Origin: Paraspadella gotoi
Taxonomy: Eukaryota; Animalia; Chaetognatha
Direction: 5' to 3'
DNA length: 64,000 bases
Assembly (NCBI GenBank): GCA_051294375.1
Contig: CM119267.1
Location: 2,098,793-2,162,792, forward strand
This document shows positions 13,350-43,858 of the stretch, piece after piece; the stretch's first letter is position 1, and each line of letters opens with the position of its first letter. Both the position numbers and the translations under genes were made by a program. The notes under the pieces are model-generated. The model did no database searches, was not told the origin of the DNA, and saw only the letters and a list, made by a program, of their open reading frames with translations.

Positions 13350-16300
13350 TTATTCTCTTGATAATGAAATGGGGCCGGTCGACTGGCCGGTCGTCGTCCC
13401 GGTCTTCGACCCTTTCTTCTCTTTTTCCACTTTTTCCAAAATCTTGTTGACGTCCATCGTTTTGTTGACCTTGACGTAAGTTCCTGAGCTGACTTTGGCA
13501 ATCGTTAACCTGAAAAAATAATTGAATTAAAAAAATAAAATTAAACTATTTCATATCAAAATTTTGATTCCGTAAGAGGCTAACAGGCATAAACAATTAA
13601 CAGACGCAAAAGGAAATAACATTAACAAAAAGGCCCGATTTTTATTCAGTATTTCTATATTGTTATACCAAGTTGTTTATATTTTCCGGTTCTCACCATT
13701 CTGGAGCGATTTGAGCCAAGAGTTTGATGTGAGCTTCGACGGCGTTGGGCCCGATGGCGGTTCGATGAGATTCCCCCACTTTCTTCAAGACTTCCTCCAA
13801 GGGAAGAGCCGGCTTCTTCTCCGTCAAAAAGTGCGTTCGAAGGATCTTGATGAAGTTGGGAAGGCGGGCGAGCATGCTCAGTCGGTCTGAAGACTCGCTG
13901 CTCATCACCTTGAGAAAGAGAAACGGACACGTTGCGACTTTTTTTAAAATAAAAATCTCGTACGTTGACATAAATAAACTTTGTTATAAATATAATACAG
14001 TACAAACGTCAAAAAATTATGGGGGATAATGTTTTTGTATCCAAAACATTCTTTTTCAAATAAATCTAAAGAAAGCGAGGAAAAGACAGTCTGGATACAA
14101 TGTCTTTTACTTTATAAAACGAGCGCCAGGCCTCACCAAATTCTCAGCGGCTTTTTTCGCTTCCTTCTCCCTGATCTTCGCCAAGAGAGAAGAAGGAATT
14201 CCTTTCACCGCGGGTTTGGACGGAGGCGCCGGCGAAGATCCATTCTCTTTCCGCTTTTCTGTTGGGGAGGAAAGAAAATCAACTCGTATTCGTAAATGAG
14301 CAACGATTCTAAATTACTTTAACGACGGTAACGTTTTGCAAATACAACTTTTTTCCCCCTCTCGCACCTTTGAGCGAAGAATCGACTTCTTTATCTTGCG
14401 CCTTGGCATCCGCCACTTGTTTCAACGCTGCCTCGATTCTCTTGTTCAGCGATCCCTTTGCTTTGTCTAAAACTTCCTTCGCCGTCGAAAACTTTTCCAC
14501 CTGAAGTCAAAATATAACGAAGGGTTTTGCATTTGTATCCTCTGCAGCAGCCTCGGATGGAGTTTCCCCATCCACTTGCCTGCGGCGGCTGGGGCAGCGG
14601 CGCTTCGGTCACGTCGGGAATCTTCTCCAGCGGAAACTTGGCGTGCCAACGCTGGACCTTGTCTTCGTCCACGATCACCGGCGGTTTCAAGCTTTGTAAG
14701 AACCTGATGGAGAAGGAAACCGTCAGAGAGAGAGAGAGAGAGAGAGAGAGAGAGAGAGAGAGAGAGAGAGAGAGAGAGAGAGAGAGAGAGAGAGAGAAAG
14801 AGACAGAGAGCGCGCAGAGATTCACTAGAATCCATCGTAACGTTAACTAACTTGGTGTGATGCTTCTTCACGATGTTGATGAGCGAATGATGGAACCTGT
14901 GGCGCCGGTTGAGCAGCACCGACGCCGTCATTGGCGGACGAACGTCGGAGGCGGCGTCGCAGCCGGGGACTCGAGGCTCCACAGTGAGTTCGTAGTGGGA
15001 GAAGTCATTCCTCCCGTAGACAACTTTGGCTTTTTCCTGGAATTGAATCGTGACATCTGGAGTGAATTGTGAAGAAGAACGGGGTGAGGAATAAACTAAT
15101 AAACTCACCCTCCTTAGTTTATAAGATTCGGGGAAGACGGTGATGATCTGCGCCAAATGCCTTTCGTCGAAAGAGCGACGCGTCAATTCTTGGACGGCGC
15201 CTTTCAGTTTCGAAAATGTGATCATCTCTTTTCTTGAAAGGAGAAAGGAGAAAAGAAAAAAAGAATGAAGGGAAACGATTGCACAGTCCTGCTTTGATAT
15301 TCTATTGTCGGAGGGATGGAGGCCATAACCCACCAGTCTGCCTCAAGTCAAAGTAAAGATACTAGTGTGGCGGTATATTCACATCGCCTCACGTCCACCA
15401 TCGTTCAGCCAATACCATTGACTCAGAGGGGGAACGCACCATCCAAAACGTGCGTTCTAACGAGTCCTAACGACTTCCTTCTGTGTGATTGGAGGCGTCA
15501 CTGAGGGTCGATCGACCCTAAAGCCAACAGTGAGATGCCCCATCCCAATGGGCATCACTGGTATCCCGGCTGTTGCCATACTAGCTCATTTATGGCAGTA
15601 GTGGATAATTTTTATACGTATTGGTTTGTACCAATTTCATACAAAAATTGAACTAACCTGTTGTAGTAAATTGAAACGGCCTGATCCATATTTCGAAGAA
15701 ACTCTAGAAGGATCTTGTATTTAAAGGGCAGAGGAAGTTCACCGCTGGGTGCGTCCACCTTCTCCGCCAAGTGAGAATACTTTTGATAAGCGGGTTGTTT
15801 CGTGGCGGCGGATTTGGGTGCCGCCTCCTTCTCTTTCACCGCCGCCGGCGCCGCCTCTTTCCCCAACTCTTCCTTCAAGCTCTTCTTCCGTCCCTCGATG
15901 GCCTTGAGTTTGGCTTGCAACTGCAACAGCTTGACGCTCTTAGACTGAGCGGCGTCGTCGGCGGCGTCGACGAGGGGTTTGGGCGCTGCGTCTTTTTTGG
16001 CGCCGCTTTTGCTAAGTTTAGCGATGAGGTCGTCAACGCCGGTGGACGATTCGTTCTTGTCTCTCGCCTCCTTCGCCTCCTTCAGTTTTTGTCTTAGTTC
16101 ATCGACTCTGGTTGACTTCCCTTTGCCTTTTCCTTTCACCGGTGTCGTCGTCGTCGTCCTCGTGGCTTCGCTCGCGGCTTCCTTGACGTCTCCCGCTTTC
16201 GACGAGGAACTCGGGGAGATGGTCTCGGAAAGCCTCTTCATGAGCGACTTGGCCTTGTCGAGGATGGGCGAGCTGGTGGAGGCGGCATCTTGAGAGCGTT

Positions 16301-17193
16301 TGGCGGATTCGAGGCGGACATCCTCGCCGCCCATGTTGAGCTTCTTGCGGGCGGAAGACATGGTGAGTTTCTTGACTGACCCGGGAAGACAACTGGAGAA
16401 AAGAAGGACAAATAAAATCTTCAGTTAAACTTTCTTCAGTAATTAAAGGCAGCGATCCTTACCCGACGCTCTTCGGACTCGGCGTCGCCAGAGTTTGCTG
16501 CCGCTGCTGCGGCGTCCGTTTCGGCGTCGTCGGTTCCTCCTCTCTCTTCTTCATCTTCCTCGGCGACCCCTCCTCTTCCGCTCCTTCTTCCTCCCTCACG
16601 ATGAGAGCGACCTTCTTCGGCCTCTTTCTTCCTCTCTGAATCTCCTTCAACTTTGAAGGAGACGAGGGTGGCGTCACGAGTTCGTGGTCTTCGTCGTGGG
16701 CGGTCGCCTCTTCGCCTACCACTTCCGGTGCCGGCGTCAACGCCTCGCGAATGTCCTTTTGTTTTTTAGTCTCGGCGCTTTTGGCCGCTTTGGCGCCGCG
16801 TTTGGGGCGCGACCGCGCCGCTTTTTGTTGTTCCGCACTGGAGGATGAAGAGGTGGCGGTGGCGGCGCGGCGAGTTCGAGTGGCGACGGCGCCTTCGTCT
16901 TGAGCGAGAGGTTTGGCGGAGAAAACAAGAACGCCGGCATCTTGTTCCCCGATGCTGGCGGCGCCGTCGAAAGTGAGATCGGGTTTTTGCGGCTCCGAGA
17001 AATGAACGCCGCTGGTTTTGCTGCTCGATTTTTCCGGAACGACGACGAGCGCAGGGGTCTCTTCGACCTTTCGACCTTTCTTAGCGAGAATCGCGGGTTC
17101 ATTCAAACGCACGACTTTCCTTCGTTTCGACGGTTGAATGTCTAACGTCTTTTTTTGAATCGCGTAAAAGTCCGTCACTTTGCATTGAGCCAT
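13350..17193 (-). CDS. CDT1: DNA replication licensing factor Cdt1
   Basis: N-terminal PIP degron QCKVTDFYAIQK, Cy motif RKKL, geminin-binding region LPLPFKYKILLEF..MDQAVS / QELTRRSFDERHLAQI, and C-terminal winged helix RLPNFIKILRTHFLTEKKPAL...APEW. About 9 exons. Confidence 0.9.
15366..15580 (+). mobile_element. Short TGTGGC...GCCATA element with 4-bp TSD (CTAG) in a Cdt1 intron
   Basis: CTAG at 15362-15365 and 15581-15584. Internal similarity to 61810-62067. Confidence 0.65.
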
Positions 17194-17696
17194 TTTCTAT
17201 TTTTATCTCTTATTTTTCTAAATCGCGAACGATGAAAAAAAAATACAGAACTCAAAGAAAGACGTTTTCTTAAAATAATGACGCAAAATGAAGGAGATAA
17301 CAAATTAAAAAGTTGGAATGGTGATTTATGCCTTCCCTCTCCCAAGTAACGGAACATGTAATTCTACGTATACCGCTAAAACTAAGCGGTAAACTTTAAA
17401 TATAAAGTATATCTAAGAAAAATAATACGCGTAAATGAAAAATATTTATTATTCGTTCTTTTTAAGATGTTGCACAAGGGCGTTCGCACCAAATGATAAA
17501 AAAAATAATAAAAACGTCAAAGGATAAAAAGTAGCAACTAACGATTCGACAGCAATAAATGCAATATTTCAGCGAGATGGCTCAAAATTTTCTAACCAGG
17601 GATAAAAAGATTTTAGGCTTAGGTGGCAAAAAAAAAAAAAAAAAAAAGAGCCCAGGCTTTTGACAACCCAAAGGGAATTTTTAAGATAAAAGGCAT

Positions 17697-42953: not shown

Positions 42954-43169
42954 TCTCAATCAGAGACGAAGATTTGGAATCAAACTAAACACTATCGAGG
43001 AATGAGAAAACAACTAGAGATGAAAACGGCGCGCAAAGTTAATTAATCTCAAGTATTCGAGAAATACATTTATCACGGTCGAAAATAAAGAAAGACTACG
43101 CATTACATTAAGTTTTTCATTGTTAGTCCAAAATAATCTCAGGAATTAGGGATCGATTCTGCGACGACT

Positions 43170-43858
43170 TTAGCATTCGCCACAATCAGCGATCTCCACG
43201 ACCTTGGAGCATTTTCCCGATTGGGTTCCCACCGCCTCCATCTGCTTGAGAATTTCCAGTCCTTGGGTCACCTGAAATACAAGATAAGTATTTATTGATA
43301 AATAGATTGTGAGCGAAAAATGAATTAAAAATGGAGAAATGGAGTGAGGGACTGACCCGGCCAAAGACGACGTGCTTGCCATCCAGCCAAGAAGTCTTGG
43401 CCGTGCACATGAAGAACTGACTCCCGTTGGTGTTGGGGCCGGAGTTGGCCATGGACAGGACACCCAGACCCGTGTGCTTCTGGCAGAAATTTTCGTCGTT
43501 GAATTTCTCGCCGTAGATAGACTTTCCTCCGGTTCCGTTGCCTTAAACAATTATAAATATTACATTTTTATATTATATTAAATAATACGTCAAGAGTTCA
43601 AAAGTCTTAACCGATTGAGTAGAAACTTGCAAGAATTATTTCTGACTTACCTCGGGTGAAGTCGCCGCCCTGGCACATGAACCCAGGGATAATGCGGTGA
43701 AACTTGGAGCCCTTGTAGCCGAAGCCTTTCTCTCCGGTGCAGAGAGCGCGGAAGTTCTCGCTCGTCCTGGGGCAAACGTCCTTGTCCAGCGTCATGATGA
43801 TGCGCCCGGCACAGGACGTCCCGATGTTGATGTCGAAGTAGACGTTGGTTTTGGCCAT
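43170..43858 (-). CDS. Cyclophilin A-type peptidyl-prolyl isomerase
   Basis: [50 protein letters not shown] and [10 protein letters not shown]. 3 exons. Confidence 0.96.

Follow-up and report, generated by a model that had tools for sequence, protein, structure and literature searches.

In a 64,000-nucleotide stretch of the genome of the chaetognath Paraspadella gotoi (contig CM119267.1, positions 2,098,793 to 2,162,792; called the window below), ten consecutive genes on the minus strand probably constitute an operon resolved by spliced-leader (SL) trans-splicing, or a chain of two or three such operons, for dividing or germline cells. The block covers 30,509 bp from the ATG at 43858 to the stop codon at 13350 and encodes, from 5' to 3', cyclophilin, a KNL1-like protein, dUTPase, a HAUS3-like protein, Aurora kinase, importin-alpha, a CNBP-like protein, PCNA, CDK2 and Cdt1 (Table 1). 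The chances that all ten genes share one promoter are roughly even.

Our exon models, built from the sequence and from joints in assembled RNA, bear out the ten co-oriented genes of the initial annotation and reproduce exactly the nine stop-to-ATG gaps that it gave, which in order are 216, 190, 220, 217, 277, 527, 399, 442 and 503 bp. The block has 56 introns with a median of 98.5 bp; the longest is the 2,721-bp first intron of the HAUS3-like gene, matching the claimed reach of about 2.7 kb. Plus-strand genes bound the block on both sides as described, namely a small open reading frame (ORF) from the ATG at 12034 and a GT10 fucosyltransferase from 46276. The genes had also been called non-paralogous; there are indeed no tandem copies among them, but Aurora and CDK2 are distant kinase relatives.

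RNA contigs across the spacers and a leader in a relative

The RNA evidence comes from one run of the same species, X1, presumed to be RNA and with spliced contigs; these contigs are assemblies and not single molecules. Three other runs (X2-X4) gave low-depth or divergent pieces only and were not used. Spliced X1 contigs cross five of the nine spacers. One, 4,338 nt long, links the 3' exons of the KNL1-like gene to dUTPase and the HAUS3-like gene, with six listed joints (pieces 34959-35709 and 33986-34653). Another of 4,577 nt runs from the 3' end of Aurora through importin-alpha and the CNBP-like gene to PCNA (pieces 26944-27518, 22328-23258 and 20856-21568); joints are listed for 11 of the 17 introns in this span, and the contig is as long as expected with all 17 removed. 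Genomic DNA is an unlikely source of these bridging contigs because the introns have been removed.

Elsewhere in the block the X1 CDK2 contig ends near 19269, as judged from its length, beside an AG at 19271 with a weak acceptor score. Cover is interrupted for about 125 nt between the PCNA contig and the CDK2 contig and for 33 nt, at a T-run, between the latter and the Cdt1 contig; these data are filtered, and the interruptions prove nothing. By bin arithmetic on the same filtered data about 2,000 depth-letters are left for 42595-43102, which holds KNL1 exon 1 and the cyclophilin-KNL1 spacer. Contig depths range from 128 to 1,439, which we did not use to rank genes, and a long importin intron has a depth of 0-5. 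Upstream of cyclophilin a further contig aligns over all but 25 of its letters, the remainder lying beyond an AG at 44700-44699. This RNA may be the outron or leader region of the whole unit, its strand being assumed, as contigs give none. An overlapping pair of E2F-like words is found inside it at 44258-44269.

A metagenome scan with the closest PCNA relative, in which two of 65 pattern matches were confirmed, yielded an intronless contig of 3,994 nt (L001) that carries a leader tail, then PCNA, then CDK2. The other confirmed match, L002, has 40% identity; it is unrelated and was set aside. The first 16 nt of L001 equal the 3' end of the chaetognath leader SL2 in Table 3 of PMC2481426, an end common to all but one of the leader variants listed there. 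The chance of such a tail at a given place is about 1e-9, and the window holds no copy of it. The initial annotation had proposed leader sequence at the 5' ends of the downstream mRNAs, and this holds for the relative's PCNA mRNA. Among the X1 loose ends listed (six in one set, which has 770 further rows over four runs, and six of 28 in the other) no leader is seen.

The proteins of the window and of L001 are identical at 232 of 262 residues for PCNA (89%) and 255 of 300 for CDK2 (85%), while 62 of 99 and 60 of 108 four-fold sites, respectively, have changed. Judged from these sequences the PCNA-CDK2 link dates far back, whether the two copies belong to different species or are paralogues, because it has been kept despite changes at about 60% of the four-fold sites. 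The gap between the two genes is 793 bp in L001 versus 442 bp in the window, and the two spacers share no conserved sequence. We discarded a supposed conserved acceptor some 205 nt upstream of CDK2, which has a score of 1.2 in the window and comes fifth in L001.

In a search with a PCNA exon the closest relatives have 86-94% identity, and named animals at most 81%. We built a PCNA tree from 42 of 139 rows, i.e. the closest relatives and 18 named taxa (molluscs, arthropods, an annelid and vertebrates). The window and L001 fall in a clade of 17 of the 42 rows with support 100/99, apart from the 18 named taxa; row P0005 forms a long branch inside this clade. From these sequences the window is very likely chaetognath; the label rests on the leader of L001, and no named chaetognath protein was found among the matches.

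Among the matches listed, 20 of 23 close PCNA relatives are on contigs shorter than 2 kb and three on contigs of 2.5-4 kb, in keeping with monocistronic mature mRNAs and rarer precursors. These sizes also bear on the idea that the polycistronic RNA stays uncut, as a stable multi-ORF mRNA translated by internal initiation or re-initiation. Such an mRNA would agree with the full splicing of the multi-gene contigs and with the X1 loose ends free of leader. We nevertheless consider it very improbable, since the relative's PCNA begins with a leader, most of the relatives' PCNA contigs listed are about 1-1.5 kb long, and every spacer holds one to six upstream ATGs.

Separate promoters, spacing and the cell-cycle theme

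Ten co-oriented genes are not special by themselves, since 21,072 genes of random orientation would give about 20 same-strand runs of ten. A series of nine tight links is far rarer: on the published P. gotoi operon counts, its expected number is 0.0004 with independent links and 0.05 in a geometric model of operon length. Spacing outside the block is wider: 2.4 kb separate the block from the divergent fucosyltransferase gene and 4.2 kb separate the divergent ABCC-type gene from the small plus-strand gene, and the one same-strand pair measured there has a gap of about 0.8 kb (53790 to 53011).

Several observations weigh against reading the ten genes as an SL-resolved unit. Only four of the nine gaps are below the 250-bp rule for P. 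gotoi, the rest being 277-527 bp, and seven are below the 500-bp rule for Oikopleura dioica; all gaps are taken from stop to ATG and include the untranslated regions (UTRs), so that the gaps between transcripts are shorter. No bridging X1 contig is listed for four spacers, and a two-gene contig can also be assembled from genes with a promoter each if their 3' UTRs and outrons overlap. The lack of a leader among the X1 loose ends listed counts here too. Acceptor-like sites stand 17-87 nt before most of the ten ATGs, as scored with a position weight matrix built from the block's 56 introns. The best score before the ATGs averages 4.5, which is not significantly better than in 80 intron windows (2.7, p 0.10) or in post-stop windows (p 0.19); 83 of 2,000 shuffles reached the observed score, a control distorted by windows without an AG. 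The last intron of the KNL1-like gene and the spacer ahead of PCNA contain E2F-like words that would fit internal promoters. In relatives no Cdt1 match lies in the 1.4 kb after CDK2 in L001, and the order in a bacterial artificial chromosome (BAC) of Spadella is GDI1-RPS14-PCNA with no CDK2 behind PCNA. The ten-gene order is thus not fixed among relatives, although the PCNA-CDK2 pair is kept in L001. The 1.4 kb in question (L001:2554-3994) has no ORF of 80 aa and bears a 10-nt tandem repeat near 3560-3750.

An alternative is that the block is a co-regulated, e.g. E2F-driven, neighbourhood of tightly packed genes with a promoter each, every gene maybe trans-spliced from its own short outron, and that the contigs reflect overlapping UTRs or read-through. 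The E2F-like words at 21156, 36357 and 36648 would suit it, as would the passages of PMC12460157 in which about half of the P. gotoi genes are trans-spliced and only 18% are operonic; nor do the contigs prove single molecules. We think it unlikely, because spacers of 190-280 bp would have to accommodate a promoter as well as the 3' and 5' UTRs, spliced contigs cross two and three spacers in succession, and the same PCNA-CDK2 bridge is found in the distant L001. E2F-like words are also common, with 30 in the 64-kb window and four of them upstream of cyclophilin, and are too weak to use. The SL operon remains our favoured reading: SL operons are known in the phylum, L001 joins leader, PCNA and CDK2, and five spacers are crossed.

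A separate question is why these ten genes are together. Five of the ten are firmly and seven probably replication or mitosis genes. With assumed base rates of 10, 20 and 30%, the binomial p is 0.002, 0.03 and 0.15 for five of ten, and 1e-5, 0.001 and 0.011 for seven of ten. These values are post hoc, as the window was chosen for its striking look. The suggested arrangement of mitotic genes 5' and replication genes 3' was not significant (four of 35 orders of the seven core genes, p about 0.11), and dUTPase stands third.

The block could then be an ordinary chaetognath operon that came by its theme by chance, without selection for co-regulation, in a pool of genes already rich in germline, maternal and housekeeping functions. 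We give this explanation of the cause, which leaves the mechanism untouched, a substantial chance somewhat short of even. Operonic or trans-spliced genes do dominate the germline markers of P. gotoi in the cited passages of PMC12460157. On the other side, seven of ten would need a base rate above 30% to be likely (p 0.011 at 30%) and operons this long are very few. In the Spadella BAC only PCNA and PRC1 are plainly cell-cycle genes among about 14 named non-transposon genes, and the PCNA-CDK2 linkage has outlasted near-saturated synonymous divergence. That the block is one transcription unit kept by selection as a proliferation module, a process-themed long operon of bacterial style, is a possibility that we hold only tentatively.

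The ten genes and their neighbours

Table 1. Genes of the block, spacers with RNA evidence and RNA upstream of the first gene (window positions)
Feature	Position	Strand	Remarks
Assembled RNA upstream of cyclophilin	43915..44699	-	810-nt X1 contig, 785 aligned; no long ORF
Cyclophilin (PPIA-like), first gene	43170..43858	-	3 exons, 164 aa; Pfam Pro_isomerase; both introns are X1 joints
KNL1-like (tentative)	35458..42953	-	14 exons; SILK, RVSF and MELT-like motifs
KNL1-dUTPase spacer	35268-35457	-	190 bp; crossed unbroken by the X1 4,338-nt contig
dUTPase	34469..35267	-	3 exons, 200 aa; Pfam dUTPase; inside the spliced KNL1-3'/HAUS3 contig
dUTPase-HAUS3 spacer	34249-34468	-	220 bp; crossed unbroken by the X1 4,338-nt contig
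HAUS3-like (tentative)	28623..34248	-	8 exons; first intron 2,721 bp, GC-AG; exon 1 with frameshifts; six X1 joints
Aurora kinase	27303..28405	-	3 exons, 317 aa; Pfam Pkinase; PDB match
Aurora-importin, importin-CNBP and CNBP-PCNA spacers	within 20957..27302	-	277, 527 and 399 bp; all crossed unbroken by the X1 4,577-nt contig
Importin-alpha	22986..27025	-	11 exons, 524 aa; Pfam IBB, Arm, Arm_3; X1 joints
CNBP-like CCHC zinc-knuckle protein	21356..22458	-	4 exons, 226 aa; Pfam zf-CCHC; X1 joints
PCNA	19510..20956	-	5 exons, 262 aa; Pfam PCNA_N and PCNA_C
PCNA-CDK2 spacer	19068..19509	-	442 bp; same gene pair bridged in the relative's contig L001
CDK2	17697..19067	-	6 exons, 306 aa; PSTAIRE kinase; Pfam protein kinase; all 5 introns are X1 joints
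CDK2-Cdt1 spacer	17194..17696	-	503 bp; Cdt1 contig enters 409 nt, past AATAAA at 17450 (piece 16463-17602)
Cdt1, last gene	13350..17193	-	9 exons; Pfam CDT1 and CDT1_C

On protein sequence eight of the ten identities are firm, and those of KNL1 and HAUS3 are tentative. The Pfam searches were run on single exons. Three of the 56 introns are of the GC-AG type (HAUS3 31266-33986, PCNA 20113-20389 and Cdt1 14501-14579). The first importin intron, 26864-26944, reads GG..AG in the assembly and is yet spliced in RNA, so that these ends are probably an assembly error or a variant.

Both tentative genes have frameshifts in the assembly. In the KNL1-like gene the frameshift sits in a Pro-rich tandem repeat near 40400-40200. 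The predicted protein has SILK at residue 8 and RVSF at residue 71, as had been claimed, and so shows the N-terminal SILK and RVSF motifs by which PMC4558858 recognizes KNL1. It also has four MELT-like motifs of the EMS/DMS type, found with a loose pattern and no control. For the C-terminal coiled coil and tandem RWD domain, which PMC4558858 also names, exon 10 gave an Atlas lead to Spc24/Spc25 clusters at a score of 0.88, below reliability; Pfam, PDB and homologue searches with single exons (exon 10 for homologues) found no match.

The X1 contig of the KNL1-like gene extends 21 letters past the acceptor of exon 2 instead of covering the whole of exon 1 (42595-42953). They may represent either the last part of exon 1 or what is left of a leader, and with a leader the mRNA would encode a protein with RVSF and without SILK. 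In another X1 contig a piece resembling the last KNL1 intron (36414-36506, four listed mismatches) is joined to the last exon (35689) with 22 letters replaced. The piece may stem from a paralogue or from a divergent allele, or it may be an internal first exon. The E2F-like words at 36357 and 36648 and a TC repeat adjoin this piece.

Over exon 1 of the HAUS3-like gene the X1 RNA contig has seven gaps and is seven letters longer than the gene model, and for this reason the break there is probably an assembly error or an allele. Part of this exon matches the Pfam family HAUS-augmin3 (PF14932) at the corresponding N-terminal place of the profile, with an E-value of 0.026 and 14.4 bits versus a cut-off of 29.4. 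Homologue searches, including one with exon 7, found no relative, and the AlphaFold model of exon 7 has a mean pLDDT of 42. A profile-library match, P0142, was rejected as spurious, being an FG-GAP repeat protein. The HAUS3 contig ends at the last donor, and a separate contig runs into the intron with an immediate in-frame stop (28675-29009); two C-termini are possible.

The kinase is not established as the Aurora B to which the initial annotation referred: it scores alike to Aurora A (150 bits) and Aurora B (147 bits) in PDB. X1 contigs of this gene carry replaced letters at both joints, which suggests a second, similar Aurora copy or allele. The CDK2 call draws on the relative's protein in L001, which scores 498 bits to CDK2 versus 418 to CDK1 in PDB. 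The N-terminal PIP degron and RxL motifs ascribed to Cdt1 are present as pattern matches, using what we take to be their consensus sequences.

The neighbours of the block are off its theme. An ABCC-type transporter (772-7868, minus strand) and an acetyl-CoA hydrolase/CoA-transferase (about 48017-53011, minus strand) were named by eye. The GT10 fucosyltransferase (46276-47598, plus strand) is intronless and was identified by Pfam, and an SLC6-type transporter (59055-60530, minus strand) is a single long ORF. The small plus-strand ORF has no Pfam match, and Rfam gave no match anywhere in the window.

Relation to known operons and biological meaning

The SL-operon mechanism is already known in chaetognaths; the length of the block and its cell-cycle theme appear to be new. 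According to the cited parts of PMC12460157, P. gotoi has 1,470 validated operons with 18% of its genes operonic, and the longest operon reported there has nine genes, including ribosomal, ubiquitin and proteasome subunits. The block resembles the known chaetognath operons in the phylum, the close co-oriented genes, PCNA as a downstream member and, probably, leader addition and a germline association, and differs from those of P. gotoi in having ten genes and in its replication and mitosis content. Spadella cephaloptera has the SL operon RPS14-PCNA (PMC2481426, in the part cited); PCNA follows RPS14 there, whereas here it follows the CNBP-like gene and precedes CDK2. The terms PCNA, KNL1 and "cell cycle" are absent from the main text of PMC12460157. 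No description of the ten-gene block was found in the literature, of which the P. gotoi operon table was not covered and may list the block, or parts of it, without comment.

The operons of Caenorhabditis and Pristionchus also yield a polycistronic precursor cut by trans-splicing and are enriched in germline and growth genes (passages of PMC2776167 and PMC4138322). Their members are described as rarely related by function, in contrast to the block, and nematodes have a dedicated downstream leader whereas chaetognaths are without one. In Oikopleura dioica the operons join loosely related functions and are scrambled between cryptic species (PMC11067885, in part), unlike the strong theme and at least one old link seen here. 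The claim that functional coherence is unusual for animal operons is supported by these sources, whose cited passages describe operon members as rarely or loosely related and germline-enriched (PMC2776167, PMC11067885, PMC4138322). Bacterial functional operons similarly group unrelated genes of one process, but the genes here have introns and the RNA would be cut to capped single mRNAs before translation.

We propose that transcription would start at a promoter ahead of cyclophilin, and perhaps at internal promoters too, to give a long precursor RNA in dividing or germline cells. The precursor would be cis-spliced, and cleaved and polyadenylated after each gene; a spliced leader would be added at each next gene, so that every downstream gene of the block in P. 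gotoi would carry one and single mRNAs would result. The unit would then be an on/off supply for proliferating cells or for the loading of oocytes. If the genes formed a selected module, a single promoter would supply licensing, replication, spindle and kinetochore factors together.

Iso-Seq, ATAC-seq and single-cell RNA data have been reported for one chaetognath (PMC12460157, in the part cited). The usual explanations of animal operons are germline loading or transcriptional economy; a ten-gene unit in which replication and mitosis genes prevail would put co-regulation to a direct test. In well-studied animals the G1/S and G2/M genes are switched on in separate transcriptional waves; in P. 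gotoi they would share one transcript. Because of this sharing, phase-specific control would have to be mostly post-transcriptional, acting on translation and proteolysis, e.g. through the PIP degron of Cdt1 and the activation of Aurora and CDK2. KNL1, if retained, would also give a way into the kinetochore of this lineage, for which the loss of CenH3 and CENP-T has been reported. If the ten genes are one selected unit, it would surpass in length every chaetognath operon reported so far and would be an exception to the view that function plays no part in what animal operons group together.

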